Shown here piece after piece: positions 10,667 through 37,653 of a stretch of 64,000 nucleotides of DNA. The position numbers and the translations under genes were made by a program. Source of the stretch: Candidatus Eremiobacteria bacterium. Its GTDB lineage: Bacteria > Vulcanimicrobiota > Vulcanimicrobiia > Vulcanimicrobiales > Vulcanimicrobiaceae. Numbering within the stretch: position 1 is the stretch's first letter; every line of letters begins with the position of its first letter. The DNA is taken from assembly GCA_963758295.1 (NCBI GenBank), contig CAVWUU010000004.1, forward strand, positions 512,001-576,000, read 5' to 3'. Under the pieces are notes generated by a model. The model searched no databases. It was given only the letters and a program-made list of their open reading frames with translations, and was not told where the DNA came from.

Positions 10667-11158
10667 GTGTCAAAACACGTTGCCGAAATTTACTGGGAAC
10701 GCGGCGAAAGCGTGTTCTCCGACAATCGATACAGCCGCGGACACCACTGGAGTTTCGATGGGGGCGCCGTCGTCAGAGCGTCAAGCTCACCGGACGTCGT
10801 TCGCCTTCCGTTTTCCGATCCGGCCGGCGTGGATCCCGAAGAAGCACTCGTGGCCTCGATTTCGAGTTGCCATATGCTCGTGTTCTTGAGCCTTGCTGCT
10901 AGAGCCGGTTTCGTCGTCGATTCGTACAAAGATTCAGCGGTCGGCGAAATCGACAAGAACGTGGCCGGGAAGCCGTGGGTCGCCCGCGTCGTTCTCCATC
11001 CGCACATCACGTTCTCCGGCGCCAGGGTCCCGACGGACGAAGCCATCGAGCAGCTCCATCATGCGTCGCATGAAGATTGCTTCATCGCGCACTCCGTGCT
11101 AACGGCGATTTTCGTTGAGGGAACCTGGACGCACGCGGCGGCGGCCGCATCTCACTGA
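10667..11158 (+). CDS. OsmC/Ohr family protein
   Basis: YSRGH, VDPEEALVASISSCHML, HEDCFIAHS (two Cys); AAGGAG SD. Confidence 0.85.
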   Translation: MSKHVAEIYWERGESVFSDNRYSRGHHWSFDGGAVVRASSSPDVVRLPFSDPAGVDPEEALVASISSCHMLVFLSLAARAGFVVDSYKDSAVGEIDKNVAGKPWVARVVLHPHITFSGARVPTDEAIEQLHHASHEDCFIAHSVLTAIFVEGTWTHAAAAASH

Positions 11159-11176
11159 CGAACGCTGCAAAACCCT

Positions 11177-11949
11177 TGTCGCCCTGAGCTTGTCGAAGGG
11201 CAGACGAATCCGGGGTGTCGCTGGTATCCGCCTGTCCTTCGACAAGCTCAGGATGACGGGGGGACAACGTCATGTCGAGTATACGCTCGTCCTTCGACAC
11301 GCTCACGATGACGAAACACAACGTCATGGTGAGCTTGTCGAACCAGAGGCGCATCCGGGGCAATGCGGATATGCGCTCGTCCTTCGACAAGCTCAGGATG
11401 ACGGGGGACAACCGTCATGGTGAGCTTGTCGAACCAGAGGCGCATCCGGGGCGATGCGAAGATGCGCGCGTCCTTCGACAAGCTCAGGATGACGGGGGGA
11501 CAACGTCATGGTGGGCGTGTCGAACCGGAGGCGCATCCGGGGCGATGCGAAGATGCGCTCGTCCTTCGACGAGCTGAGGATGACAAAGGGACAACGTCAT
11601 GGTGAGCTTGTCGAACCAGAGGCGCATCCGGGGCAATGCGAAGATGCCGTCGTCCTTCGACAAGCTCAGGATGACGAAACACAACGTCATGGTGAGCTTG
11701 TCGAACCAGAGGCGCATCCGGGGCGATGCGAAGATACGCGCGTCCTTCGACAAGCTCAGGATGACGGGGGGACAACGTCATGGTGGGCGTGTCGAACCAG
11801 AGGCGCATCCGGGGCGATGCTGATATGCGCTCGTCCTTCGACAAGCTCAGGATGACAGGGGGACAACGTCATGGTGAGCTTGTCGAACCAGAGGCGCATC
11901 CGGGGCGATGCTGATATGCGCTCGTCCTTCGACAAGCGCGTGACGGGGG
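11177..11949. repeat. Tandem array of about 91-bp BIME-like units, each an inverted pair of CGTC-tagged REP palindromes
   Basis: Units CGTCATGGTG(A/G)GC(T/G)TGTCGAACC...TCCTTCGACAAGCTCAGGATGAC start at 11322, 11413, 11504, 11595, 11685, 11776 and 11867; degenerate units start near 11177 and 11268. Lies between convergent genes. Confidence 0.9.
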
Positions 11950-24264: not shown

Positions 24265-24355
24265 ATCCGCCTCCTCAAGGCGGATGCGCTTGTCGATGCT
24301 CAGAGTGACGAAGCCTCGAAGCCACGTCTCGTCAAGGCAAGCGCTGCTAAGCTGT

Positions 24356-24393
24356 CCATGATTTCCACGATTACCACGATTACCAGCATACCA
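24356..24393. repeat. Short 9-bp tandem repeats, possible operator
   Basis: CCATGATTT CCACGATTA CCACGATTA CCAGCATA CCA, between two divergent regulators. Confidence 0.4.
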
Positions 24394-24474
24394 GAACCAT
24401 GAGAAACTACGTGCAGGGCCTCTCTAAGCGCCCTTCCAGTCGCTCTTCGGCGGAGCCGAGAAGTCAAGGAACTC

Positions 24475-24882
24475 ATGGAGCACCTCAGATGTGCCGTTCT
24501 GAGCAGCGACCAAGATGCCACTAACAGATTTAGTTGTGTACTTGTCGAGGCCGGCTACGATCGTCCACGATGCTTGGAAGCTCTTGGCGTTGCAAAACTC
24601 GGGACGTATGAACCATCGGTCTTGATGGTCGACTTCGATCACTTTCGAAGCGATCAGCTGGAGTCGATTAGGCAGCTTCGTTTCGTCTTACCAGATTGCG
24701 CGATCGTGGTTGTGTCGTCGAATCTCCAGAGAACGTGGGCCAGAAGGTGCCATATGGCCGGTGCCAACGCGGTGCTTTCCAGTGGAAGCGGCGCGAAACA
24801 CATGCTCGCCGGCCTTCAGCGCGCAGTCCGTACAGGTTGTTACACCGACCCGGACTTTGCCACTAACGCAGCGGAGCAATAG
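24475..24882 (+). CDS. Stand-alone receiver-like domain protein
   Basis: EPSVLMVDFD, LESIRQLRFVLPDCAIVVVS, AGANAVL. Confidence 0.65.
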   Translation: MEHLRCAVLSSDQDATNRFSCVLVEAGYDRPRCLEALGVAKLGTYEPSVLMVDFDHFRSDQLESIRQLRFVLPDCAIVVVSSNLQRTWARRCHMAGANAVLSSGSGAKHMLAGLQRAVRTGCYTDPDFATNAAEQ

Positions 24883-25047
24883 CGGGCCGAGTAGTTCCGA
24901 CGTCACAGATTGCAAATATTTTTGCCCGACTCGGCGCGTCATCGCATGCTATGATCGTTGCCAGTTGCCCTATTTCGCTTTGCGGCATTTGCCTTTCCCG
25001 GGCGCGCATAGCACGTAACGAACTCGCACACCGACAAGGAGCGCGCG

Positions 25048-25353
25048 ATGCTCGAGCACCTGACTCAGATTCAGCCGCTGCTGGCAATCGGCGTGATGGT
25101 TAGCACGGCGGCAACCGATGCGGTGTACGTGCTCTTCACGTCAGCGGTTGCGGGACGGCATCGAATTGCCGCCTCAAGCTGGAGCAGCGTGTGGTATTTG
25201 CTTTCGTCGTTCGCTGTAATCACGTACACGCGTGATTGGACCTACGTGGTCTTCGCGGCGATCGGTTCGTGGATCGGTGCATACATCTCGATGACGTTCT
25301 TGCATGCGTCGTCGCAAGCACCGAAGCCCCCGCTCGCCCGGACGCCGCCGTAA
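25048..25353 (+). CDS. Small membrane protein
   Basis: Hydrophobic segments; AAGGAG SD. Confidence 0.65.
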   Translation: MLEHLTQIQPLLAIGVMVSTAATDAVYVLFTSAVAGRHRIAASSWSSVWYLLSSFAVITYTRDWTYVVFAAIGSWIGAYISMTFLHASSQAPKPPLARTPP

Positions 25354-25476
25354 ACGCGTAGATATTTATACGGGAGAAACACGGCAACATCGAGCTTCGG
25401 AGATTTAAGCGGGACGTCTAACGCCAGCTTGGCGGTTGGCGTAAAGCCGGGCTCCCGGTGGTAAAATCGTTACGTT

Positions 25477-26022
25477 ATGGTAATCGGAATTGTCGGTGCG
25501 GACGATCGCGCGGTGACGATCGCCCGCCAGCTTCGGACCTGCGGGCACACCGTGAGCTTTAGCGACCCTAACGGCGTGGACCACGCCGACAAAGCGGTCG
25601 CGGCGCTAGCCGACCCGGCGGTTACCGCTACGACGACCTACAATCAAGCCGCCACGTGCGAGACCTTGATCCTCGCGATCCATTGGGAAGACATGGACAA
25701 GACGCTAACGCAGCTGGGGGACTATAAGGACGGCGTGGTCATTGACGCCATGCGTCCACCGCACATTGACGGCGCCGAAAATAGTGCGCTCGTGCTCGAG
25801 AAGAAACTCGATAACCGCCATGTGGTGAAAGCCTTCGTCGAAGAGCCGCTGCCTCGCGGTGAAATTCGCGTCGCGTCCGACGACCCCGAAGCGCGCATGA
25901 TGGTATGCGAGTTGATAGACTCTTGCGGCGGCAAAGCGGTTGATGCGGGGGCCCTCGCCGAAGCTCTGCAAATCGAACGCCGTTTTTCGGACGAAACGAA
26001 AGCGATCAGAGGAACCATATAA
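25477..26022 (+). CDS. NAD(P)-binding Rossmann-fold protein (F420-dependent NADP oxidoreductase-like, degenerate glycine motif)
   Basis: IGIVGA, LILAIHW, VVIDAM, HVVKAF, ASDDPEA, AVDAGAL...IE. Confidence 0.7.
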   Translation: MVIGIVGADDRAVTIARQLRTCGHTVSFSDPNGVDHADKAVAALADPAVTATTTYNQAATCETLILAIHWEDMDKTLTQLGDYKDGVVIDAMRPPHIDGAENSALVLEKKLDNRHVVKAFVEEPLPRGEIRVASDDPEARMMVCELIDSCGGKAVDAGALAEALQIERRFSDETKAIRGTI

Positions 26023-26639
26023 GCAGATATACCGGGCTCGCCTGCGTATGCGTTACGCTCAGCGGCGCGCTCCTTGGCAACGTTGCCACCGAGAAACTTG
26101 TCGACGCCGGCCTTTTCGCAGGAAGCGCTTACGACGCTCACCATGAATCGGTCGGTATCGTCATGTTTCTCACTGCGTGCGCGCTCTTTGTGCTCGCGGG
26201 ATCGCTCCTGGGCGCCGATCTTCCATCGTTGCGACGATTGCTCACCGAACAACGATCGGGAGCCGCGGTCGTCGTCGAGTTTTTTCTCGGCGTCGCGGGC
26301 GCCATGTCGGTTATTCTGCTGATGGAAGGCTACGAGACCCATTTCGGCGGGCTCTCACCCTTCGATCCGCATGCGGTGCTCATGCACGATGCGCCGGCTA
26401 CGATCGTCGTCTACATTGCCGTCTTCGCGATCGCGCGATGGCTCATCGATCGCTTCGCTCAAGTAGTCGGCGCAGCCGGCCTTATTCTCGGCGCGGCGTT
26501 CTCGCTTATTCGCCGCAATCGCTCCGGCGGTGCGCCGCTACGGCGCGAGCGTAGCAAACCGGTTCTTTCGCCGGCTCGCAATGTTTGCAGCCGGCAAGGT
26601 GAACTTCGAGCGCCTCCGCGCGCAACCGTGGCCCTTTAA
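26019..26639 (+). CDS. Multi-pass membrane leader protein with C-terminal RAPP ribosome-arrest motif (206 aa if the ATA start is used)
   Basis: The frame is open upstream of ATG 26163 to an ATA at 26019 with AGAGGA SD. About 5 hydrophobic segments, His-containing loops, ends ELRAPPRATVAL 24 nt before a TonB receptor. Confidence 0.65.
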   Translation: MSRYTGLACVCVTLSGALLGNVATEKLVDAGLFAGSAYDAHHESVGIVMFLTACALFVLAGSLLGADLPSLRRLLTEQRSGAAVVVEFFLGVAGAMSVILLMEGYETHFGGLSPFDPHAVLMHDAPATIVVYIAVFAIARWLIDRFAQVVGAAGLILGAAFSLIRRNRSGGAPLRRERSKPVLSPARNVCSRQGELRAPPRATVAL

Positions 26640-26667
26640 CACCACGCTGCTCCGGGGTTCGCCATGT
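26594..26667 (+). promoter_or_regulatory. Predicted mRNA stem sequestering the TonB receptor SD and AUG
   Basis: GGTGAACTTCG (26598-26608) pairs with CGGGGTTCGCC (26653-26663), 11 bp with 3 G-U. AGC/GCT extends the stem inward and GCA/TGT extends it over the AUG. Confidence 0.55.
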
Positions 26668-29408
26668 CAGGATTCTTCAGACGCGCCTTCGCCGCGTCTT
26701 CGCTCGCATTACTCCTTCCATTTCTTTCGATAGCTTCGATTCGCGCCGCGGAAGCTACGACCGGGACGATCGCGGGAACCATTTCCGACAGCGATCACCA
26801 TCCCGTGGTCAACGCCGACGTAACGGCTACTTCGCCGTCGGCTCGCTTCGAGACGAAAAGCGACGCCGCGGGCCACTTCGCCATCTACGGCGTCGCGCCG
26901 GACACGTACGCCGTCTCCGTGCATGCCGGCGGCTACGACTCCCTTTCACAAGCCGGCATCACCGTTCTCGCAGGAACACGCCAAATGGTGGTCTTTCAAC
27001 TGGTGAAGCAACTCAAGACCATCGCTACGGTCCGGGCGACGGTGCGTGCCTTCACCGCAGGATCGACGAGCGACACATTCACGGTATCCGGGTCCGCCGC
27101 TCGCGCGCAGATGCCGGCCGCCGGAAGCGCCGGTCTTGCAACCTACACCCGAGGCACCGTGCAAGGCGCCATCTCCGGCGTGCCGGGCATCGAACAAGAT
27201 CCGTTCGCCAACGCAATCGTTCGCGGGGGGAAGATTGATGATGCGGTGTTTACCTACGACTCCGTTCCAATTCCCCAAGGACTCGTGGCGGAGCCGGGAG
27301 GCAACGTTGTCGGCGCGCAGCTCGCAACCACCGGCATCGGTGAAACCACGGTTACGCTCGCTGGATTTACGACCCAATCCGATAACGCGCTAGGCGGCGT
27401 GATCAATGAAATCCCGCTTACCGGCGTGTATCCCGGAACGACGGAGGTGCAAACGGCTACGGGCATCGGCTCCGGCAACCGCGAGGTGCAGCTTCGGTCA
27501 CAATGGGCGACGCCGGATCTCAAATGGCGCTACGCATTCGCCGGAACTGCCGGCAGCGAAGATTTTTTATATGGCGACGGACATTCGTTCTATCCCGCGG
27601 AGATCGGAACGTTCGGTCTGGCGCTGTCGACGCGCGCTCAGTGGTCGATGGCCGGAAACGTGCATTACCAAGTGCGTCAGCACGACGATCTTGCGCTGAT
27701 CGGACTCGTAGGCGAAGCGACGTACAATCAATACGGAACGCCCTTTACCGGCGAGACGTACGGGTTTCTCAACGGATCTTCGACGGCATTTCCCGGTGGC
27801 CAACCGGCGGACCGGCAAGTCGACACGCCTTCGATGATTCGCGGAACCTACGATGTTGTGAAAGCGCAGTGGTCGCACGCCCGGCCGAAATCGTTCTTTC
27901 GCGCGCAACTCTACCAATCGCAGTTTGGCGCCGGTGCGAACGGGCCGTTCTGGGATGACAACGGATTTCCGGACGGAGCCATTTCGATCTATCAACGCCA
28001 GGGCGGGCGTCTCACCGGCATTGGCGTCGACGTTCAAGCTGACGCGGGCGAGCGGCACAACGTCTACTACGGCGTCGATTATCGTTCGTCGGCCTCGTGG
28101 CTCGATCAAATCGTTCCGACGGCGGACGAACTGATCACTTCGAACCCAAGCATAATTACGACGCTCGCGTATCTAGGTGATACGTGGAGCATGTCGCCGC
28201 GTTTTGATCTCGGGATGACTTTACGCGCGGTCCATGCGGGCATCGCTCGTAGCGATGGTCCCGGCTACGCCATTGGCGCGCTCGATCCGCATCTATCGCT
28301 CGCGTACCGGTTCGGTGATGCCTTTGCGTTCCGCACGACCTACGATCGCACGACGGTAGTTCCAAAGGGTCTCGAAGTCGACCGCACCGACTCTACAAAC
28401 GTCGATCAACACGGCAACCCGGCGCCGACAACGCAGCTTGCGCCGGAAGCCGGCGACTTCTTCACGTATTCGCTCGAACATAGCGGCGCGACGCGCGCAC
28501 GTTTGACCTACTTCGCGCAACGTGAAACAAATCGCATAGATGTCCTGCCTTATAACTTCCGTCAGGCGATCGCCAACGGGCAGGTGCCGAACGGGCTGGG
28601 CATTCCGAGCAACGCCGGAACGCTGCGCGCTCACGGTCTGGAGTTCTGGATGCAACGCAGCGGCTTTACGTTCGACGCAGACTACATTCGTGCGCTCTCC
28701 TCCAGCGCTTCGCAATTCGCGTATAACGAGCTCAACGCGCCCGCGACCGCTGCCGGACATCTCTTTCCCGCGTCGTACGTTCCGGATCTTGAGGCGTCAG
28801 TATCGTACGAGATTCGTTTAACTCGCAACTTGCGCATCATCCCGTCGCTTTCGTACGAAACCGGATTTCCTTATGGAGTCGGGCGTAAGGTTTGGATTTT
28901 CGACGCTGGCGGGCATCCGATGCAAGTCAACAACGACAATAACGTCAATCCGGGTTACAACTATTACTTCCTGCGCGATCCCTCGCAATCGTTCAACGCT
29001 TTGTCGAACCCTTATATCGGTTCTCTCGGCACTCCCGAGGGCAACGACCCGAATACGCTTCGCACGCCACCGCAAACGCTCGTCTCACTCGAGGCGCGTC
29101 TCGACGTTCATCCGCGCACTTCAATCGTGCTCGATGTCTCTAACTTCTTTGGAACTTCAGCTCCCACCGAACTGACGAGCAATCCATATCTCATTGGACC
29201 ACCGGGCTACACGGGCGGCAAGCCGTCTTATGCCTCCTGGTATCAGCAACAACTCGGCAGCAATAAACCGTACACACTGGGAAACGGCATTCCGACTAGC
29301 AACGGCTACTCGCAAATTCTGCCGTGGACATATGGAACCGCCGGCTACGTCCCATCTTCTTATCCCCTCGCACGCAGCGTTCGATTACGCATCATTTGGC
29401 AACTCTAA
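26664..29408 (+). CDS. TonB-dependent receptor with N-terminal carboxypeptidase-regulatory-like domain
   Basis: Signal peptide, TGTIAGTISD..PVVNADV..GHFAIYGV.PDTY, plug VRGG..D, ALGGVINEI, alternating barrel strands, C-terminal RLRIIWQL. Confidence 0.85.
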   Translation: MSGFFRRAFAASSLALLLPFLSIASIRAAEATTGTIAGTISDSDHHPVVNADVTATSPSARFETKSDAAGHFAIYGVAPDTYAVSVHAGGYDSLSQAGITVLAGTRQMVVFQLVKQLKTIATVRATVRAFTAGSTSDTFTVSGSAARAQMPAAGSAGLATYTRGTVQGAISGVPGIEQDPFANAIVRGGKIDDAVFTYDSVPIPQGLVAEPGGNVVGAQLATTGIGETTVTLAGFTTQSDNALGGVINEIPLTGVYPGTTEVQTATGIGSGNREVQLRSQWATPDLKWRYAFAGTAGSEDFLYGDGHSFYPAEIGTFGLALSTRAQWSMAGNVHYQVRQHDDLALIGLVGEATYNQYGTPFTGETYGFLNGSSTAFPGGQPADRQVDTPSMIRGTYDVVKAQWSHARPKSFFRAQLYQSQFGAGANGPFWDDNGFPDGAISIYQRQGGRLTGIGVDVQADAGERHNVYYGVDYRSSASWLDQIVPTADELITSNPSIITTLAYLGDTWSMSPRFDLGMTLRAVHAGIARSDGPGYAIGALDPHLSLAYRFGDAFAFRTTYDRTTVVPKGLEVDRTDSTNVDQHGNPAPTTQLAPEAGDFFTYSLEHSGATRARLTYFAQRETNRIDVLPYNFRQAIANGQVPNGLGIPSNAGTLRAHGLEFWMQRSGFTFDADYIRALSSSASQFAYNELNAPATAAGHLFPASYVPDLEASVSYEIRLTRNLRIIPSLSYETGFPYGVGRKVWIFDAGGHPMQVNNDNNVNPGYNYYFLRDPSQSFNALSNPYIGSLGTPEGNDPNTLRTPPQTLVSLEARLDVHPRTSIVLDVSNFFGTSAPTELTSNPYLIGPPGYTGGKPSYASWYQQQLGSNKPYTLGNGIPTSNGYSQILPWTYGTAGYVPSSYPLARSVRLRIIWQL

Positions 29409-30280
29409 CCCCCGTCATCGTGAGCTTGTCGAACGAGAGGCGCATATCAACACAGGCCATCTCGATCAGCGAAAAACGTAAGGCGATCGCGCAAGCTCAA
29501 GGTGAGATGCGCTTGTCCTTCGACGGGCTCAGGATGACGGGGGTACGTTCATCCAGACGGTGCACTATCGAAAATCGACCTCCGAACACTCTACCCCGTC
29601 ATCGTGAGCTTGTCGAACGAGAGGCGCATATCAATACAGGCCACCTCGACCACCGAGAAACGTAAGGCGATCGCGCAGCTCAAGGTGAGATGCGCTTGTC
29701 CTTCGACGGGCTCAGGATGACGGGGGTACGTTCATCCAGACGGTGCACTATCGAAAATCGACCTCCGAACACTCTAACCCCCGTCATCGTGAGCTTGTCG
29801 AACGAGAGGCGCATATCAACACAGGCCATCTCGATCAGCGAAAAACGTAAGGCGATCGCGCAAGCTCAAGGTGAGATGCGCTTGTCCTTCGACGGGCTCA
29901 GGATGACGGGGGTACGTTCATCCAGACGGTGCACTATCGAAAATCGACCTCCGAACACTCTAACCCCCGTCATCGTGAGCTTGTCGAACGAGAGGCGCAT
30001 ATCAACACAAGCCATCTCGGTCAGCGAAAAACGTAAGGCGATCGCGCAAGCTCAAGGTGAGATGCGCTTGTCCTTCGACGGGCTCAGGATGACGGGGGTA
30101 CGTTGATCCGGACGGTGCACTATCGAAAATCGACCTCCGAACACTCTAACCCCCGTCATCGTGAGCTTGTCGAACGAGAGGCGCATATCAACACAGCCCC
30201 TCTCGGACACCGCAAACCGGAGCGATCGCGCAAGCTCAAGGTGAGATGCGCTCGTCCTTCGACAAGCTCAGGATGACGGG
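29403..30280. repeat. Tandem array of about 186-bp units, each containing an inverted REP pair
   Basis: Units start at 29403, 29589, 29772, 29958 and 30144 (partial); each has CGTCATCGTGAGCTTGTCGAACGA...TCCTTCGACGGGCTCAGGATGACG. Confidence 0.9.
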
Positions 30281-30410
30281 TCGGAACAAGCCGTCGGCGT
30301 GAGCGGGGGAACGCCTTTTTTGCGTTGGCTGCGTGAAGATCGATACAGTACAGACACTCCGCATCGCGTTGATCGTGATAGTGATGGCGAAGCCGGCCGT
30401 CTTCGCTCAC
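30156..30410 (-). CDS. Possible small His/Cys protein at the end of the xox operon (C-terminus runs into the REP array)
   Basis: GTG 4 nt after the cytochrome stop; HHYHDQRDAECLYCIDLH. Confidence 0.3.
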   Translation of the reverse strand: MSEDGRLRHHYHDQRDAECLYCIDLHAANAKKAFPRSRRRLVPTRHPELVEGRAHLTLSLRDRSGLRCPRGAVLICASRSTSSR

Positions 30411-30414
30411 ACGA

Positions 30415-30837
30415 TTAGTCCTTAACGATCGGTGCCTTTGACTTCGTAGCGCTGCTAAAGCTCAGCGGCGATCCGCCGGCCTTGTAACCGTTCTTGCTTA
30501 GGATGAACGCCATGACATTTACGTATTGGTCATGCGAAAGCGACGCAGGCGCGTTCATCGGCATGTTGGTCGTCATGTACGTAAAAATATCGGAAACGCT
30601 CGCGTGCACTTTGGTGCTCAAAGTCTTGAAATTCGGACCGGTAAGCGCCGGCCCGGCACCGCCTTCGAGTGACGCGCCGTGACACATCGCGCAACTCGTG
30701 GCGAACTGCTTCGAGCCCGCCGTGGCTTGTGCTGCCGAAAAGGTTACCGGCGCACCAGCCGCCCGCGGATGCCCCGCTGAAACGGCCGCGACCGCGACGA
30801 GCGCGGCACTCGCGAGAACTGCTGGAATGGCTTTCAC
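30415..30837 (-). CDS. Periplasmic monoheme cytochrome c, probable XoxF electron acceptor
   Basis: Signal peptide, CAMCH, distal MP (TNMPMNAP); GGAGG upstream. Confidence 0.85.
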   Translation of the reverse strand: MKAIPAVLASAALVAVAAVSAGHPRAAGAPVTFSAAQATAGSKQFATSCAMCHGASLEGGAGPALTGPNFKTLSTKVHASVSDIFTYMTTNMPMNAPASLSHDQYVNVMAFILSKNGYKAGGSPLSFSSATKSKAPIVKD

Positions 30838-30844
30838 CTACGCG

Positions 30845-31300
30845 TTATCCTCCGTGCACCTGGCGGTGAACTTCATCGAGGTCTTCAAGCGTATTCAACG
30901 TTACCGCGTCGGAAATCGTCGCGTCTTGAATGCCCGAGGAGCCGCGCATCTTCGTCGCCAGGTCGTCGGCATGGTTGTAGCCATGCACCGCGTCGTTGTG
31001 CTTGCGGATCGTTTCCGGTGAAATCGAGCCGCCGTTCTGCTGGATCACCCATTGCTCGAACTGCATATACGTCGGCTTGTTTTGCCGGACGAAGGCCATC
31101 GTTTTATCGCGGTCGAGATTGAGACCGCTAAGGGTCATCGCATCGAAGCCGTGCCCGCACTCGTCGTAATCGTCGGGCAGTAATCCCTTGCTCGCGAGCG
31201 TCAGCTTCAACCAGAGACGCGGAAGGTGGATCGCTCCGAGCGGACCCGCAGTGTCGGAGCTCATCAATGGAACGATTTTTTGCGACGTTGCGCTTTGCAT
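30845..31300 (-). CDS. DUF5069-like protein
   Basis: VPLMSS..AGPLG..HLPRLWLK, GFDAMTL, KPTY.QFE.WV, LN.LED; AAGGAG SD. Family assignment from recall. Confidence 0.65.
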   Translation of the reverse strand: MQSATSQKIVPLMSSDTAGPLGAIHLPRLWLKLTLASKGLLPDDYDECGHGFDAMTLSGLNLDRDKTMAFVRQNKPTYMQFEQWVIQQNGGSISPETIRKHNDAVHGYNHADDLATKMRGSSGIQDATISDAVTLNTLEDLDEVHRQVHGG

Positions 31301-31322
31301 GTAGAGTCTTCTCCTTACTTGA

Positions 31323-32246
31323 CTAGGCGGGAGTAGAAGCGGCGTCGCGCGATCGCGCGCCGTGGCGGGATAGGAACGTTAGCTCCGATACGCCCGATTT
31401 GTCGAGGTTCCCAAGACCCTCGGCTTTCATCGTTTCGTATTGGTCGAACGTCGCTTGCGCAAGCGGAAGCTTCAAGTCGACGTCCTGGGCAAGCCCTAAG
31501 GCGATGCCCGAGTCCTTGGCGGCATGCTCCGCGGAGAAGTACACGTCGTGTTCGCGATTCTGCATGTCTTCGCCGTCGGTCTGGAGCACGCGCGAGTTTG
31601 CGCCGGTTTCCGAAAACACTTCTCGCAGCATCGTCAAATCCAGGCCAAGCGCGTCGGCTAAACCTAAACCTTCGGCGAGACCGGCGGTATTGATGTTCAT
31701 CACCATATTGACCAGCGCTTTGACTTGCGCGGCGCGACCCGCTTCGCCGATGTATTTCAGCGATGAGCTAAGCTCTTTGAGCATTGGCTCCATTTGCTCG
31801 AAAATCTCTTTACGGCCGCCGATCATCAGGTACAGCGTCCCGTTGCGCGCCTGAGGGATCGAGCTCGCCATACACGCTTCGATGGAATGTGCGCCTACGG
31901 CTTCCGCGCGCCGCTGGACCTCTACGTGAATGCCCGGCGTCACGGTGGCCGTATTGATAAAGATCTTGCCCTTGGCGTCTTTCAGTAGTGAATCGCCCGA
32001 CTCGGCAAAGATTTTGTTCATCGCCGCGTCGTCGGTGACGACGGTAATGATCACGTCGGCGTTTTGCGTGACTTCCCCAAGCGTGCGTACCGCGTTGCCG
32101 CCGACCTGCTTTGCCGTTTCCTCTGCGGATTCTGGCCGAATGTCGTACAGCACCGTTACGGGATAGCCGACGTCTTTCAAACGCAGCGCCATATTGGCGC
32201 CCATGCGTCCCGTTCCCACAACGCCGATGCGCGGTTGCGCGCTCAT
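31323..32246 (-). CDS. NAD(P)-dependent beta-hydroxyacid dehydrogenase family oxidoreductase
   Basis: GVVGTGRMGANMA, catalytic KALVNM, AKDSGIA; the usual DAPVSGG motif is replaced by EACMASS; ATGA overlap with xoxJ. Confidence 0.85.
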   Translation of the reverse strand: MSAQPRIGVVGTGRMGANMALRLKDVGYPVTVLYDIRPESAEETAKQVGGNAVRTLGEVTQNADVIITVVTDDAAMNKIFAESGDSLLKDAKGKIFINTATVTPGIHVEVQRRAEAVGAHSIEACMASSIPQARNGTLYLMIGGRKEIFEQMEPMLKELSSSLKYIGEAGRAAQVKALVNMVMNINTAGLAEGLGLADALGLDLTMLREVFSETGANSRVLQTDGEDMQNREHDVYFSAEHAAKDSGIALGLAQDVDLKLPLAQATFDQYETMKAEGLGNLDKSGVSELTFLSRHGARSRDAASTPA

Positions 32247-33046
32247 GTAGAACCTCCGGGTTCGAAGAAGCTGATGTGATAGGCACGAAGCACGTTCGTC
32301 AGATCCGCTTCATGGCTGCTGATGACTCGGTTAACCTGATCGATAAGTCCTGTATTGTCGCTTCGCGCCGCCATCGCCATAGGGAAGCTGTACTGCTCCG
32401 GCGAGCCTTGGGTACGCGAGTTCGGAATCGTAACCGCGTGGAGATCGGGATACTTTGGAAGGTAGTAGCCGACCGCCGGCGCCCACGTGAGCCCCACGTT
32501 GATTTGGTTGCTTTCCAAAGCCGCTAAAATGTCAGCCGGCGACCCCGACTCGCTATCGGCCGTATCGAAGTGTTTGGCATTGACGGTCAAGGCTCGAAGT
32601 TTCAGTCCATTTTCCGCGGGGGTGTCGCCTTCGTACCCGATCTTCATTCGCTGGAGCGCCGGTGAATCGAGCGACGTTACGTCGTACGGAGAGTTCTTCT
32701 TCAACACGAAGACGTACGAAGAAATGTAATACGGCTTCGACGTTTTGACGGTCGTCATAGCATACGGCACGTCGACGATCAGATCGCACTTCCCAGCGTT
32801 GAGCTGGTTGTGAATCATTTCGTCGAAGCCGTCGCCGCGCGTTGACGCCCACACGAATTTGACCGGCCGGTTCAAGCCACGTGCGACGATCGCCGCGATC
32901 TTATTTTCGAACCCTTGACCGGCGCGATTGGAATACGGCATATAGTCCGGATCGGCGCAGACCCGTAGCGGCGTCTGCGCTTGCGCCGTGCCTAAAGTGA
33001 GCGCGGCCAGTGCCGCGCTCACAATCATGACCCGTATCATTCTCAT
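32243..33046 (-). CDS. xoxJ: XoxJ/MxaJ-like periplasmic substrate-binding protein
   Basis: LRVCADPDYMPYSNRAGQGFENKIA, GKCDL, PYY.SSYVFV, WAPAVGY; ATGA overlap with xoxF. Confidence 0.85.
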   Translation of the reverse strand: MRMIRVMIVSAALAALTLGTAQAQTPLRVCADPDYMPYSNRAGQGFENKIAAIVARGLNRPVKFVWASTRGDGFDEMIHNQLNAGKCDLIVDVPYAMTTVKTSKPYYISSYVFVLKKNSPYDVTSLDSPALQRMKIGYEGDTPAENGLKLRALTVNAKHFDTADSESGSPADILAALESNQINVGLTWAPAVGYYLPKYPDLHAVTIPNSRTQGSPEQYSFPMAMAARSDNTGLIDQVNRVISSHEADLTNVLRAYHISFFEPGGST

Positions 33047-34833
33047 TGCAGTGAGAATACCACCAAGTCACCGCCGAGATTCGTATAGCTCCCAAGATCC
33101 ATCGCGGCGTTTACCGCACCCAGGCCCGCGGTCGGATTCGTCAATCCGGCAGCAAGACCAAGGGCGGCCCATCCGCCGACGCCCGAAAGAATCGCCACGT
33201 ACTGCTTGCCTTTGTACGAGTAGGTGATCGGATTCCCGATAATTCCGGAAGGCATCTTTTGGGACCACAGTTCGGAACCGGTCTTCGTGTCAACCGCCTT
33301 GAAATAGCCGTCCAACGTGCCGTAGAAAGCTACGCCGCCGTCGGTCGTAAGGACGCCGCCCCACGCGGGGAAGCGCTCGTGATCGCTCCACACGATCTTG
33401 CCGTTATTCGGATCCCATGCGATTACCGCACCGCGATAGCCGCCGGGTCCTGGATACATCTTCACGATTGCGCCGACATACGGAAATCCCGCCTTATATT
33501 TCACGGCGAAAGCTTGGTAGTCCATGCAATTGTGATTGGTCGGAACGATGAAGTAGCCGGTTTGCGGATCGAACGATGCGGGCTGCTGATCTTTGTTGCC
33601 CATAGCCGCGGGACAAATGTTCTTGACGTTTGATCCCTGTTTCGTGCTATAGGCCGGATCGAGCACCGGACGTCCCGTCGTCATGTCGATATGCGTGGCC
33701 CAGTTCACGGACGGATCGAACTTCTCGGCAAGCAACAGTTTGCCGTTGCGCCGGTCGAGTTCGTACGCAAAGCCGTTACGATCGAAGTGAACGAGCGCAG
33801 GCACTTGCTGATCGTGAACTTTGATATCGGCGAGAATCATCTCGTTGACGCCATCGTAGTCCCATGCATCGTGCGGCGTCATCTGATACGCCCACACGGC
33901 CGTGCCGTCGGAGGGATGACGCGCGAAGATCGTCATGGACCACTTGTTATCGCCGGGACGCTGCGATGGATTCCACGTTCCGGGATTGCCGGTGCCGTAG
34001 TACAGCAGATCGAGCTGCGGATCGTAAGAATACCAGCCCCACGTCGTGCCGCCGCCAACTTTCCATTGGTCGCCGTGCCAGGTGCTGATGCCCGCATTCT
34101 TCGGGCCGTTGAATCCGGCCGGAATAAGTACATCGGCATCCGACCCTTCACTGTACGCGCGCCAGACTTTCTTTCCGCTGTGCAGATCGAAGGCCGTAAG
34201 GTATCCGCGCACGCCAAACTCACCGCCGGATACGCCCACCATGACACGGCTTTTATCTTCAATAACGAAGGGCGCCGACGTGACGGTTTGTCCCAGTTCG
34301 GGATCGGCGTTCTTCGCCGACCACACCACTTTACCGTCAGTGGCATTAAGCGCATAAATCGTGCCGTCGAGCGCATTGGCGATGATCATATTATCGCCAT
34401 AGGCAACGCCGCGATTGACAAGATCGCAGCATGCGACGGAGGTTGCGAACGAATCTTGTTTCGGCGTAAATTGCCACTTGATGTGATAGTCATCAAGCGA
34501 CACCGCATAAACGTGATTCGGATACGCGCTTTCGAAATACAGCGTATCTCCGATGACGAGCGGTTGGCCTTCGTGGCCGCGCGTCGCGCCGGTCGACATC
34601 ATCCACGCGACCTTTAAGCCTTTGGCATTGTCGGTGGTGATTTCTTTGAGTGCGCTATGACGGAGATTCGCGAAGTTTTGCGTCGGCATTGTCCACGTCG
34701 ATGCGTCCTGGCTCGTGTCGGTCATTGTCCCTTGCTGTTGGGCGCCTGCCCGGTTTTGACAGGCGAATAACCCTACGATCAAGCCCGTAGCGCAAATGGC
34801 GGCGGATGCCGAAGCAAGTACACGTTTGTTCAT
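33043..34833 (-). CDS. xoxF: Lanthanide-dependent PQQ methanol dehydrogenase
   Basis: RGHEGQP, vicinal CCDLVNRG, GGEFGVRG, GNPGTWN, PHDAWDYDGVNE (extra Asp of Ln-type enzymes), KDQQP. Confidence 0.9.
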   Translation of the reverse strand: MNKRVLASASAAICATGLIVGLFACQNRAGAQQQGTMTDTSQDASTWTMPTQNFANLRHSALKEITTDNAKGLKVAWMMSTGATRGHEGQPLVIGDTLYFESAYPNHVYAVSLDDYHIKWQFTPKQDSFATSVACCDLVNRGVAYGDNMIIANALDGTIYALNATDGKVVWSAKNADPELGQTVTSAPFVIEDKSRVMVGVSGGEFGVRGYLTAFDLHSGKKVWRAYSEGSDADVLIPAGFNGPKNAGISTWHGDQWKVGGGTTWGWYSYDPQLDLLYYGTGNPGTWNPSQRPGDNKWSMTIFARHPSDGTAVWAYQMTPHDAWDYDGVNEMILADIKVHDQQVPALVHFDRNGFAYELDRRNGKLLLAEKFDPSVNWATHIDMTTGRPVLDPAYSTKQGSNVKNICPAAMGNKDQQPASFDPQTGYFIVPTNHNCMDYQAFAVKYKAGFPYVGAIVKMYPGPGGYRGAVIAWDPNNGKIVWSDHERFPAWGGVLTTDGGVAFYGTLDGYFKAVDTKTGSELWSQKMPSGIIGNPITYSYKGKQYVAILSGVGGWAALGLAAGLTNPTAGLGAVNAAMDLGSYTNLGGDLVVFSLQ

Positions 34834-34943: not shown

Positions 34944-35011
34944 GGCGGCAGCTCTAATACAGGTGCCGTGCAGACGACTTTGAATTGCATCATCATCGGG
35001 AGGACGAACGT

Positions 35012-35683
35012 ATGCTCCATCGTTCGGTCAAAGGGCCCGGTGTTGCCATGCCGGTCGGGGTGGCCATCGTGGCGGATCGCCGTACCACTGCGGCAGCTTT
35101 AGCCGAAGTGCTCGGCGCGGATCGCGAGCTATTACTGTTGGGCACGGCCGATGCCGAGGGCGGCAAAGAACTGCTCCAAAATCGCGCGTTGCGCGTGCTC
35201 ATCGTCAACCTCAGCTTAGCCGGTGGTGAAGGCGTGCGGTTCATACGCACCGCCAAGCAAATTCGTCCCGACGTGGGTGTCCTTTCCTTAAAGCGCATGG
35301 TGGATGAACATCAACTACGCGCCGCCTTGGACGCCGGCGCCGACGCATGCTGCATGGCTGCTACCCCGGCAACGCGCATTCGCAAGGCTATCAAAGTCGT
35401 CGCCGACGGCGCAACTTGGCTCGACCCCGAGGTTGCACACGCGCTCTTCCATCATGAAACCCGCGAGGAACACGATGCCGGCGTTGCGCTGCCTCGTCTC
35501 TCGCCGCGCGAACAGCAGATTCTGCGGTTGCTCGTGGAAGGCTATTCTAATGAAGAGATCGCGCGTCAGCTGGAGTGCGCGTATCCAACCGTGCGCACGC
35601 ATCTAGCGCATTTATACAATAAGCTCGACGTCGGCGATCGGGTTTCTGCAGCGGTGTTCGCATTGCGCCATGGGCTGACGTGA
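35012..35683 (+). CDS. NarL/LuxR-family response regulator with atypical receiver
   Basis: GGGAGG SD; VLIVNLSL (Asn at the phosphoacceptor position); HTH LSPREQQILRLLVEGYSNEEIA. Confidence 0.85.
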   Translation: MLHRSVKGPGVAMPVGVAIVADRRTTAAALAEVLGADRELLLLGTADAEGGKELLQNRALRVLIVNLSLAGGEGVRFIRTAKQIRPDVGVLSLKRMVDEHQLRAALDAGADACCMAATPATRIRKAIKVVADGATWLDPEVAHALFHHETREEHDAGVALPRLSPREQQILRLLVEGYSNEEIARQLECAYPTVRTHLAHLYNKLDVGDRVSAAVFALRHGLT

Positions 35684-37653
35684 TCGCGGCGATTGTAGCC
35701 GCCGTCGCAGCCGTCACGACTTCACCGTCGCCATCACCCACGCCATCAGCGTCTCCCCTGCCCGTGATTACGACCGTGCGCGTCGCCACCGGGTCCCCGC
35801 AGACGCTTCACAAGCTGCCGGTCGCAGCGTCGGTGATGGATTCCGTTCAGCTAGCGAATACGGCGGCAGCTACGGGCGACGCTGTGCTGAGAAACCTTCC
35901 GGGCTTCGATCGCACGCGCAGCAATAGCAACTTTACCAATTACGGCCAGCTGCGCGTGTCCTTTACGGGGGCCGGGAACGATCGCGGGCTGGTGCTTGCA
36001 AACGGAATTCCGGCGCAGGACGCGTTCGGCGGGCAAGTTGACTGGGCAGAGTATCCGGCCAACGACATCGTTCGCGCAGAGTTGTTGCGCGGCGCCGGTT
36101 CGGCATTGTACGGCGCGGGCGCAATCGGCGGCGTGCTTCAGCTCGACACATTCGGTCCGGCGCGCACGCGGGAAGAGGCGCAGGGCGCCTTCACGTTTGG
36201 CACCGGTACGAACAACTCGCTGCTGAACTACGGCAACGTCCAGATCCCGATTTCGACGAAGCTCCAGGCGTCGATCTCGGCACAGCAGTCGCAACTTTCG
36301 TATCTGGCCCTTACGCCGGGCTACCAGAGCCCGATCGACAAGCCCTCGCAGTCGCAAACGAGCATGGCGTCGTTACGCCTTCGCTATTCGCCCACTGCGC
36401 ACGATTCGGTTGAATACGGCTATCGCGGCGCATGGGATTATCAGTTCGAAGGGCGTCCGAATTACGATTTCTGGCGGCGCCTCCATGAAAATTCGTTACG
36501 GTTCGCTCACTCCACGTCAACGCAGAACATCGGCGTGGACGTATATACACGCGACACTTTGATAACGAACCGCGCCGACGTCTATCCGCAAAGTCCCGGA
36601 ACGCTGCGCTACACGCAGTCGGTACCTACCGCGGAGAGCGGCGTTGCTTTTCATTGGAGCGCGGCATCGCAACATGCGGAGTTCGCCGTGCGTGCCGACG
36701 AACGGGCCGTGAACGGATTGAGCACGCAGCTCGGCCGTAACAACGTCTTTCAAAGCTCCGGCAGCGGCGCCCAACAACTGGCGGGTCTCGCGTTGCAAGA
36801 GACTTACACGTTTACGCACGGCGAAATCGTCGCAGGCGTGCGCGGCGACGAAGTGAACTTGACTCGCGGAAACGTGGTCAATGCATCGGGGACCACGACG
36901 GTCGCGCCGCGCGCGGATCGCGCCGTCTCGCCACGGCTCGCGCTGCGTTACGACGTAACGCCGCAGTTGGCGATTCGTATCTCGGATGGCGCCGGCTTCC
37001 GCGCGCCGTTTCTGAACGAACTCGTGCGCGGTTATCAGATCGGGCCGATCGCGTATCGCCCAAATTCGTCCCTCGTGCCCGAACGCAGCTCGTCGCTTTC
37101 GGGAGGGTTTGACTGGACCTCGGCACGCACGCACGTAGCACTTGACGGCTTTCATACGTTCGTGAACGATGCGATCTCGTTCCGGACGATCGATCCCACG
37201 ACGCAGATTCGCAGTAATTTCGCGCACACGCAGACCGATGGAGAAACCTTGACGATCACGCGTGCGCTTTCGCCGGCAACGCGGCTTCAGGTCTTTGGAA
37301 CGGCGCAGTACGCGCGTGTCACGTCGGGTGGCCCGACCGGCGGCAAGTATTTGCCGTACGTTCCGAATGCTTCGGCGGGGATCGATTTCGATACGACGGT
37401 GTCGAAGATTGGCGCTGGAATCAGCCTGAGCTATTTAGGACAAACGTACGCCGACGACTTGAATACGCAGCCCTTGGGAACTTCCGTGCTGCTTGGCGTG
37501 CACGTTTCGGTGCCGATTCGCGACGGGGTAAAAGTAACGGTCGATCTCGAGAATGCGACTAGCGCCCACTACCTCTCGAGCATCGACCGTTATGGACCGC
37601 CGGCGACGGTGACCGTTGGGGTCACCGTCCCGACTGCGCCGTTAGTGCCTTAG
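35680..37653 (+). CDS. TonB-dependent receptor
   Basis: Plug LRNLPG, LVLANGIP, RAELLRGAGSALYGAGAIGGV; SPRLALRY, GFRAPFLNEL, LVPERS, DLEN; GTGA overlap with the regulator. Confidence 0.9.
   Translation: MIAAIVAAVAAVTTSPSPSPTPSASPLPVITTVRVATGSPQTLHKLPVAASVMDSVQLANTAAATGDAVLRNLPGFDRTRSNSNFTNYGQLRVSFTGAGNDRGLVLANGIPAQDAFGGQVDWAEYPANDIVRAELLRGAGSALYGAGAIGGVLQLDTFGPARTREEAQGAFTFGTGTNNSLLNYGNVQIPISTKLQASISAQQSQLSYLALTPGYQSPIDKPSQSQTSMASLRLRYSPTAHDSVEYGYRGAWDYQFEGRPNYDFWRRLHENSLRFAHSTSTQNIGVDVYTRDTLITNRADVYPQSPGTLRYTQSVPTAESGVAFHWSAASQHAEFAVRADERAVNGLSTQLGRNNVFQSSGSGAQQLAGLALQETYTFTHGEIVAGVRGDEVNLTRGNVVNASGTTTVAPRADRAVSPRLALRYDVTPQLAIRISDGAGFRAPFLNELVRGYQIGPIAYRPNSSLVPERSSSLSGGFDWTSARTHVALDGFHTFVNDAISFRTIDPTTQIRSNFAHTQTDGETLTITRALSPATRLQVFGTAQYARVTSGGPTGGKYLPYVPNASAGIDFDTTVSKIGAGISLSYLGQTYADDLNTQPLGTSVLLGVHVSVPIRDGVKVTVDLENATSAHYLSSIDRYGPPATVTVGVTVPTAPLVP

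Follow-up and report, generated by a model that had tools for sequence, protein, structure and literature searches.

A four-helix membrane protein ending in RAPP is a probable arrest-peptide leader of a TonB-dependent-type receptor gene in Eremiobacterota

RESULTS

A membrane protein gene ending in RAPP lies directly upstream of a receptor gene

We analyzed a 64,000-nucleotide stretch (positions 512,001 to 576,000 of the forward strand of contig CAVWUU010000004.1) from the Candidatus Eremiobacteria bacterium assembly GCA_963758295.1, hereafter the window, in which a short membrane protein gene, the leader, precedes a large outer-membrane receptor gene. An earlier reading of the same DNA (the original prediction) had proposed that a ribosome stalled at the C-terminal RAPP motif of the leader opens an RNA stem and switches on translation of the receptor. 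The evidence presented here indicates that the leader is probably a RAPP arrest peptide carried by a polytopic sensor domain, and that its stall would uncover the receptor ribosome-binding site (RBS). The two genes and the elements at their junction are as follows, in window coordinates.

26019..26639, + strand: leader gene, a 206-codon frame encoding a four-helix membrane protein with a C-terminal RAPP plus six residues
26607..26618, + strand: RAPP codons, the proposed arrest site, from the codons and their conservation
26598..26608, + strand: putative anti-RBS strand GGUGAACUUCG, the three codons before RAPP and the first two bases of the Arg codon
26653..26666, + strand: receptor ribosome-binding region CGGGGUUCGCC plus ATG, from the minimum-energy fold
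26664..29408, + strand: outer-membrane receptor of 914 aa, with a signal peptide, CarboxypepD_reg (residues 35-113) and a TonB-dependent-transporter-like barrel

The leader frame runs without a stop from 25941 to its TAA at 26637-26639 (C-terminal letters SRQGELRAPPRATVAL). Its RAPP codons, CGA GCG CCT CCG, are followed by the tail RATVAL, and the C-terminus QGELRAPPRATVAL is separated from the receptor ATG at 26664 by a spacer of 24 nt, counted from the stop codon. This spacing agreed with the original prediction when the coordinates were re-read, and the RAPP codons, GGTGAACTTCGAGC (26598-26611) and GCTCCGGGGTTCGCC (26649-26663) all lie where it had placed them.

The start of the gene is unusual. 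The original prediction began the open reading frame (ORF) at 26019, which is correct for the frame and not for a canonical start: this position has ATA, which shares bases with the TAA (26020-26022) that ends an F420_oxidored-like gene upstream (26017-26022 reads ATATAA). No ATG, GTG or TTG is found in the leader frame before the ATG at 26163, and gene callers begin the leaders of the window and of its closest relative, at locus L001 (~78-79% identical), at this internal ATG, giving a protein of 158 aa. Homologs of 210-230 aa align to residues encoded upstream of it. Their Met lies ~102 residues before the ME.YE motif, and the window ATA falls no more than two residues from that point. L001 shares with the window both the ATA and the GAGG that precedes it by 6 nt, and has a stop four codons before the ATA and no canonical start until codon 34. 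Because the ATA and GAGG are kept in L001 and the homolog Met falls near the ATA, helix 1 is probably still translated, either from AUA or via re-initiation after the stop of the upstream gene; judged from the sequence, the ATA at 26019 is the probable start codon of the leader and the only plausible one for helix 1. Between the window and L001, 17 of the 48 codons upstream of ATG 26163 differ (8 synonymous and 9 nonsynonymous; 5/4/11 changes by codon position), and the rest of the leader has 61 synonymous and 36 nonsynonymous differences. By this codon comparison the N-terminal helix appears to be under weaker constraint than the remaining leader.

The leader is a predicted polytopic protein with carboxylates on its outer face

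An AlphaFold2 model of the leader, with the superfamily alignment described below as input, has four helices (pLDDT 84, pTM 0.75), and residues 169-206 are disordered. Its parts are:

26022..26105, + strand: helix 1, residues 2-29 (AlphaFold2); carries E25 (99/100 sequences) and position 21 (Asp in 89/100, Asn in the window)
26130..26150, + strand: loop 1, YDAHHES; D39 invariant, H42 in 62/100; mean K+R 0.7
26145..26210, + strand: helix 2, residues 43-64 (AlphaFold2)
26259..26342, + strand: helix 3, residues 81-108; C-terminal signature M-E-G-Y-E-T-H-F, with E103 and E106 invariant
26391..26522, + strand: helix 4, residues 125-168 (AlphaFold2); a single long helix, its membrane part followed by an Arg/Lys-rich cytoplasmic extension
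26523..26606, + strand: linker, residues 169-196; disordered (pLDDT ~57), poorly conserved in sequence and conserved in length

The original prediction counted about five hydrophobic segments. The model has four helices; what was taken for a fifth segment corresponds to the second half of helix 4, a part rich in Arg and Lys throughout the family (mean K+R 3.7). Since K+R is high in loop 2 (family mean 3.2) and the tail (4.0) and low in loops 1 and 3 (0.7), loops 1 and 3 are predicted to be periplasmic, loop 2 and the tail cytoplasmic, and both termini inside. This topology places E25, D39, H42, E103 and E106 all on the outer face, and the two loops that the original prediction had facing the same side of the membrane are both on the K/R-poor side. 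As it had also noted, 36 residues separate the end of the hydrophobic stretch ...GLILGAAFSLI of the window protein from the last Pro; from the end of the membrane part of helix 4 to the proposed stall site it is ~53 residues. A Foldseek search of the leader model against the PDB returned zero matches at E <= 0.001. The best VIA-align score (Z 7.8, to BceAB, YbbAP and FtsX-type membrane domains) is no evidence for or against a known fold because it is below the meaningful level for helical bundles. As modeled, the leader fold has no convincing likeness among solved structures.

The leader belongs to a conserved family that keeps RAPP

The leader is a genuine, strongly conserved and unannotated gene. 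A word-indexed search returned eight relatives besides the window protein, all eight with LRAPP near the C-terminus and all with M-E-G/A-Y-E-T-H/R-F-G-G. Scanning one genome per species gave a set of 37 loci, nearly all labeled Eremiobacterota/Vulcanimicrobiota (Candidatus Cybelea and others); three are labeled otherwise (Acidiferrales, Acidoferrum and Babeliales). RAPP is kept in 36 of these 37 loci, 93-101 residues C-terminal to ME.YE, which bears out its conservation in homologs, a check proposed with the original prediction. The tail from RAPP to the stop is 3-22 residues long in this set, and 42 in one locus. A profile search of 1.84 billion representatives found 98 proteins at E <= 0.001, and most full-length matches (~200-225 aa), even very distant ones, carry G/E-R-A-P-P or R-G-P-P 2-12 residues from the end. 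Ten clusters were looked up by name and all ten are called 'hypothetical protein'; the leader has no Pfam or NCBIfam family, and its profile-search relatives no Pfam family. In a survey of the phylum at least 218 of 401 genomes had a leader match, a count that includes four unpublished genomes with one match each (G233, G276, G329 and G344, which enter no other result here; 214 of 397 when these are left out). The matches, up to six per genome, fell in three phylum families (189/296 genomes in f1, 3/5 in f2 and 25/30 in f3); the remaining families gave zero, as did the three other genomes of the window's own genus. Within what was searched, the leader family is restricted to Eremiobacterota.

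We aligned 100 superfamily sequences. Identity to the window protein is 12-31% for 98 of the 99 other rows and 78% for L001. Invariant residues are D39, E103, E106, R197, P199 and P200, and close to invariant are E25 (99 sequences), P47 (97), A198 (96), G34 (90) and Asp21 (89). The His/acidic loops of the original prediction therefore hold in their acidic part, with the Asp of YDAHHES and the acids of ME.YE invariant in all 100, and not in their histidines, which vary: H42 is kept in 62 of the 100, and in a 9-row alignment H108 alternates with Arg and the H118 position varies (R, T, G, A). The conserved residues of the putative site are, by alignment, carboxylates and not histidines. The distance from E106 to R197 is 87-96 residues in 100 of 100 sequences (mode 94), with the intervening sequence itself not conserved, and 2-12 residues follow the Pro-Pro in 94 of the 100.

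Some leader copies stand apart. L033:4965-5387 is a shortened copy that lacks both RAPP and a receptor. The window genome has a distant second copy on contig 2 (178864-179329, - strand; locus L070), split over two frames by a frameshift or an assembly error; it has the C-terminus QGRAPPLPAV and, 210 nt downstream, an unscanned 386-aa ORF that is not receptor-like. Upstream of the leader, loci of group A have a conserved GTCGTAGGTCA-like element ~18 nt before the leader ATG (e.g. L003:4956-4973). Its group B counterpart, CGTGCTA(A/G)AA, resembles a -10 box, and the 5' leaders may be very short or absent.

The downstream gene encodes a TonB-dependent-type receptor

We accept the downstream gene as a TonB-dependent-type receptor, its plug unconfirmed, on the basis of its orthologs and fold. 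In Pfam the window receptor matches CarboxypepD_reg only, with no match to PF00593 at E <= 0.1. NCBIfam gave one weak match, far below cutoff, to the same N-terminal stretch; a PDB sequence search found nothing, and a PDB profile search found the CarboxypepD_reg part only. Orthologs at 54-58% identity carry PF00593, and several are named TonB-dependent receptor by NCBI. PF00593 is matched by 12 of 30 aligned orthologs (best E = 9.2e-21), and the Plug domain PF07715 by 0 of the 30 at E <= 0.01. The AlphaFold2 model of the receptor is a large barrel of low confidence (pLDDT 58.7; residues 136-254 below 50). A Foldseek search with this low-confidence model returned 211 matches at E <= 0.001 (best E = 2e-21), and the best 50 are all TonB-dependent transporters (Fiu, FpvA, FhuE, PhuR, PfeA, FoxA, FecA and others). 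The receptor assignment of the original prediction thus stands through orthologs and predicted fold, whereas the window sequence alone has only CarboxypepD_reg to offer.

In 35 of the 37 loci (exceptions L033 and L034) the leader is followed, in the same orientation, by a receptor ortholog (48-87% identity), in line with the co-occurrence of leader and receptor that had been named as a further check. Distant paralogs were located at eight places in five genomes, and all eight carry RAPP or RGPP, ~50 residues after helix 4. At four of these places the tail is short and the next protein, encoded within 5-82 nt, combines a signal peptide with a CarboxypepD_reg-like N-terminus; at the other four the leader frame continues ~40-60 or more codons past the motif. 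Two paralogous leaders (G069:C2:7688-8299 and 10926-11528; L075 and L078) are on the same strand 2.6 kb apart, a spacing compatible with tandem leader-receptor modules.

Predicted pairing of the receptor RBS is centered on the proposed stall site across the family

In the minimum-energy fold of 26560-26700 (-59.2 kcal/mol, z = -2.66; 2 of 200 shuffles fold as well), GGUGAACUUCG (26598-26608) pairs with CGGGGUUCGCC (26653-26663). The stem between the pre-RAPP codons and the Shine-Dalgarno (SD) region of the receptor, as originally proposed, is therefore present in this fold. To look at the family as a whole, we calculated pair probabilities for 34 loci over a segment that begins 120 nt before RAPP and includes the first 18 nt of the receptor. 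Across these loci the predicted paired fraction of the receptor RBS (-14 to +2) is 71%, and 49% of its pairing (201.7 of 411.8 summed pair probabilities) falls on nucleotides +10 to +29 from the Arg codon, that is, on the codons just downstream of RAPP. We set the stall footprint at 30 nt (-8 to +21), which assumes that the first Pro codon is in the P site at the stall, presumably as in the ApdA/ApdP structures. Pairing of the RBS to this footprint has a mean of 0.34, vs 0.065 after shuffling the footprint segment; 26 of the 34 loci are above their own shuffle mean and 17 are above all eight shuffles. Family-wide footprint pairing clearly exceeds that of composition-matched shuffles, fivefold.

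The sequences that form this pairing differ among subgroups. In a subgroup of 15 loci, CGCUCCCAG pairs with UUGGGAGCG. In another of 12 loci CGUUCGA pairs with UCGAACG, along with a local hairpin over the SD; this subgroup also carries, upstream, a second copy of the SD sequence, a possible competitor. L007 and L031 pair GUUCGA.UCCCU with AGGGAGUC..AC, and in L001 and L035 the Pro-Pro codons themselves pair with the SD. The window uses the three codons before RAPP, and its exact stem is not kept in L001, its closest relative. RBS-masking pairing centered on the stall site thus recurs across several sequence-distinct subgroups. A metagenome scan for relatives of the window subgroup gave seven loci, none close (six at 26-36%, and one 24-residue piece at 54%). 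Among sequencing runs listed for this DNA none is an RNA run, and four runs from soil or other sources contain small shares of it. A promoter and terminator scan of 24300-30400 found neither at the junction, with counts at or below shuffle expectation, and Rfam had no family at the junction and one weak narK match, at 25544.

DISCUSSION

Comparison with known RAPP systems

The principle of a ribosome-stalling leader that controls the gene downstream of it is already known from published accounts of CruR and CutF and from a 2025 survey of RAPP proteins. CruR (DUF2946; CxxC plus RAPP) controls the transporter BfrG; as described, its stall blocks Rho and copper relieves the stall (PMC9426467). 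Like CruR (Bp2923 of Bordetella pertussis, PF11162), the leader has a C-terminal RAPP a few residues from the stop, lies directly upstream of a TonB-dependent transporter and keeps a conserved spacing between its putative site and RAPP. By the same account CruR has 145 residues and is exported, with a signal peptide, a CxxC copper site and 45 residues from site to RAPP, and its output is Rho-dependent termination over a 162-nt spacer, with the ligand proposed to relieve the stall (PMC9426467). The leader, in contrast, has four membrane helices, no Cys motif, a carboxylate cluster, a ~90-residue spacing, a 24-nt spacer and a predicted RBS mask. PF11162 (DUF2946) has no match to the window leader at E <= 0.1 and none to 29 members at E <= 0.01; CxxC is absent from the window leader, and no Cys occurs in columns conserved in at least 60 of the 100 sequences. 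With neither a DUF2946 match nor a CxxC, the leader is not CruR, as the original prediction had judged from its sequence and from the missing CxxC.

CutF of Rhodobacter capsulatus (DUF2946) senses periplasmic copper, and its stall melts a stem-loop over the cutO RBS (10.1101/2025.02.05.636593). As with the proposed leader, its nascent chain reports a periplasmic condition across the membrane. CutF is described as a secreted single-signal copper sensor in which the ligand induces the stall and switches on a detoxifying oxidase (10.1101/2025.02.05.636593), whereas the leader is polytopic and its target is an importer. With four long helices and a K/R pattern that is polytopic and N-in/C-in, the leader does not have the single-signal exported architecture of CruR and CutF.

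A further comparison is with the Streptomyces lividans proteins SLIV_18480, SLIV_27375 and SLIV_33595, along with SLIV_33605, for which arrest has been shown in vitro and in vivo and which, like the leader, have four predicted membrane helices and then a C-terminal RAPP or RGPP (PMC12992588). Their conserved residues are proposed as metal or redox sites, and the genes downstream, in an organism without an outer membrane, are copper-related, thioredoxin-like or ECF (extracytoplasmic function) sigma factor genes, according to the same description. Compared by that description only, their sites are His/Met or Cys pairs, unlike the leader carboxylates. Two Actinomycetota clusters are among the nearest ESM Atlas neighbors of the leader, which is a lead toward this set.

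The leader also has the features of the RAPP arrest-peptide class, namely R-A/G-P-P near the C-terminus, a length below 300 aa and membrane segments. SecM, MifM, VemP, ApdA, ApdP and ApcA are reported to share with it a RAPP/RAGP-type motif and an N-terminal localization signal, to have a stall that exposes a downstream RBS, as proposed for the leader, and to differ in regulating Sec or YidC components and in being released by the machinery that they monitor (PMC10987492; PMC12992588). The 2025 survey describes RAPP/RGPP upstream ORFs (uORFs) of less than 300 aa, nearly all with a signal peptide, as enriched before TonB-dependent receptors (PMC12992588). Its available text makes no mention of Eremiobacterota or of carboxypeptidase-regulatory receptors, and row 3930 of its uORF_List_RAPP.csv holds at least one leader-family member, with 'TonB-dependent receptor' downstream, on the contig of L017. 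Among the matches listed in literature searches on RAPP arrest/TonB and on Eremiobacterota TonB-dependent receptors, the leader family is undescribed. The suggestion that this may be an undescribed leader family therefore fits the family and not the principle, because the class of RAPP uORFs before TonB receptors is already in print.

What is new is the sensor architecture (polytopic, with a carboxylate site and a long ruler), the phylum and the paralogous expansion. RAPP control of TonB importers has been described for small, exported, Cys-based copper sensors. If our reading is correct, the principle would extend to a sensor that is a folded membrane domain, polytopic and with an oxygen-ligand site, to the uncultured soil phylum Eremiobacterota/Vulcanimicrobiota and to several paralogous pairs per genome. 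The family would also offer a handle on questions that the survey raises, namely which force releases the stall outside the Sec/YidC field and which ligands are sensed (PMC12992588), and it flags as regulatory genes a group of ~200-residue 'hypothetical proteins' that are often miscalled as truncated ORFs.

Proposed mechanism and alternatives

We propose that the leader is an inner-membrane protein with four helices and cytoplasmic N and C termini, and that it presents to the periplasm a cluster of conserved carboxylates (E25, D39, E103 and E106) plus the His/Gln at position 42. Its C-terminal tail would act as a RAPP-type ribosome arrest peptide. With the ribosome at RAPP, ~35 linker residues would be in the exit tunnel and the four-helix domain would already be inserted in the membrane. 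The stalled ribosome would then occupy the mRNA segment that is otherwise paired to the SD/start region of the receptor, and the receptor would be translated for the duration of the stall. Via nascent-chain tension, the length of the stall would be set by the condition of the membrane domain (with or without ligand, folded or unfolded), and by analogy with CruR, from which we borrow the direction of control (ligand releases stall), substrate sufficiency would most likely free the ribosome and turn the importer off. In the model geometry the cytoplasmic extension of helix 4 has just emerged from the tunnel at the stall. This geometry, with ~53 residues between the membrane part of helix 4 and the peptidyl-transferase center, would fit late folding or ligand-dependent packing better than membrane insertion itself. 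The original reading, that a stalled ribosome opens the stem and switches the receptor on, is supported, with the stall itself, like the direction of control and the ligand, a step that we infer.

Several observations weigh against this mechanism. In the window, helix 1 lacks a canonical start codon, the ratio of nonsynonymous to synonymous differences from L001 is higher in the 48 N-terminal codons (9:8) than in the rest (36:61), and the protein deviates at three strongly conserved positions (Asn for D21, Ala for G34 and Ile for P47). The window pairing of RBS to footprint (0.65, vs a shuffle mean of 0.22 and maximum of 0.75) is within chance, and 8 of the 34 loci are almost without such pairing when the 120 nt of upstream context are included. 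Some compensatory pairs were found in groups A and B, as the covariation check of the original prediction had sought, but covariation is weak: group A has one compensatory pair among 23, and group B one among 7 long-range pairs (CG in 2 sequences, GC in 6, broken in 4). With the footprint forced open in a crude constrained fold, mean RBS accessibility rises only slightly, from 0.29 to 0.35, since other segments upstream pair anew in silico; for the window alone it goes from 0.25 to 0.50. At L034:1459-2088 a full leader with RAPP has no receptor ortholog within 2.7 kb downstream. Finally, a well-folded, conserved membrane domain could have its own, non-sensing job.

A ribosome at RAPP might instead, or in addition, shield the transcript from Rho, so that the stall sets transcription read-through. 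Rho control is a non-exclusive rival to RBS exposure, and we regard it as unlikely. In its favor, CruR is described as acting via Rho ahead of a TonB-dependent transporter (PMC9426467), the bases around RAPP are rich in C and the junction has no intrinsic terminator. Where the leader stop precedes the receptor start, the spacers are 14-60 nt here (30 in L025, whose receptor gene is broken; stop and start overlap in L029 and L037), compared with the 162 nt described for cruR-bfrG, and a Rho mechanism leaves the RBS-masking pairing at the stall site unexplained.

The idea that the domain has a job of its own can be made specific: the four-helix protein may chiefly be an inner-membrane partner of the receptor (in binding, transfer or import), with RAPP slowing the ribosome for coupling or membrane-proximal synthesis and no ligand sensed. 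The confident fold and the invariant carboxylates, typical of a functional site, would suit such a partner, as would stop and start codons that are close or overlapping (e.g. -25 nt in L029) and flanking genes that vary except for the leader-receptor pair. Two features make it improbable. The 87-96-residue spacer is conserved in length only, which suggests a ruler from the domain to the peptidyl-transferase center, as in CruR, and RAPP-like motifs are reported to be strongly avoided in ordinary proteins (PMC12992588).

Very unlikely, in our view, is a membrane-insertion monitor of the SecM/MifM type, in which the stall reports Sec or YidC capacity and the receptor is incidental. A multi-pass protein with a C-terminal arrest motif would be expected of such a monitor, as would the hydrophobic stretch whose end, in the window, lies 36 residues from the last Pro. 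Family-wide, however, this stretch is the Arg/Lys-rich extension of helix 4, and the membrane part is ~53 residues away. In 35 of 37 loci a receptor gene comes next, and in none a gene for a Sec or YidC component; genomes have up to six matches, and the identified downstream genes of the paralogs (4 of 8 places) are all receptors. Chance in a GC-rich genome as the source of RAPP and the pairing (Arg, Ala and Pro codons are common there, C-rich Pro codons pair with a G-rich SD by composition, and window shuffles reach 0.75) is hardly credible and already contradicted by the conservation data: R, P and P are invariant in 100 sequences whose identity to the window protein is 12-31%, one close relative excepted, and the family-wide pairing is five times that of composition-matched shuffles.

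Genomic context and a candidate ligand

Downstream of the receptor the window has a convergent gene cluster that bears on the ligand:

30415..34833, - strand: cytochrome c, a 150-aa hypothetical protein, an NAD_binding_2 dehydrogenase, an SBP_bac_3 protein (XoxJ-like) and a pyrroloquinoline quinone (PQQ) alcohol dehydrogenase with WDYDG

We take the extra Asp of WDYDG to mark lanthanide-dependent XoxF-type enzymes. In L023, L029 and L036 the same five genes immediately precede the leader and share its strand; the cluster thus adjoins the leader-receptor pair in 3 of the 37 loci and in the window, spanning three leader subgroups. An F420_oxidored-type gene recurs beside the pair in the window, L001, L023 and L036. 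Among 46 flanking ORFs from nine loci, none is common to all beyond the pair itself. As a lead, a carboxylate-only site suits a hard cation, with a lanthanide the candidate for the window branch, and the adjacency to the lanthanide-type dehydrogenase cluster in four loci makes this ligand testable; PQQ uptake is a second lead. Our most specific proposal, which we hold tentatively and consider unlikely as a whole, is that the four-helix domain is a co-translational transmembrane sensor of a hard cation or its carrier, in the window branch a lanthanide (or PQQ) for the neighboring XoxF-type dehydrogenase, whose binding by the carboxylates would alter nascent-chain tension, dwell time at RAPP and synthesis of the importer. 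In that case, the paralogous leader-receptor pairs of a genome would form private, protein-free feedback loops, each for one substrate. In the window genome (82% complete) pqqC was not found, which is uninterpretable as control genomes also had no match, and the equally uninterpretable search for pqqE gave sub-threshold radical-SAM matches only.

Farther along the + strand, at 34985-37653, a gene for a LuxR-type response regulator is directly followed by a second, canonical TonB-dependent receptor gene without a RAPP leader (Plug plus barrel, 657 aa). Between the receptor and the convergent cluster, at 29402-30280, lies a tandem array of 4.8 copies of a 186-bp unit (95% matches); a sub-threshold match to an Rfam miRNA model inside it is surely spurious. 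The array begins 6 nt before the receptor stop codon and fills the gap from the receptor to the cytochrome c gene.

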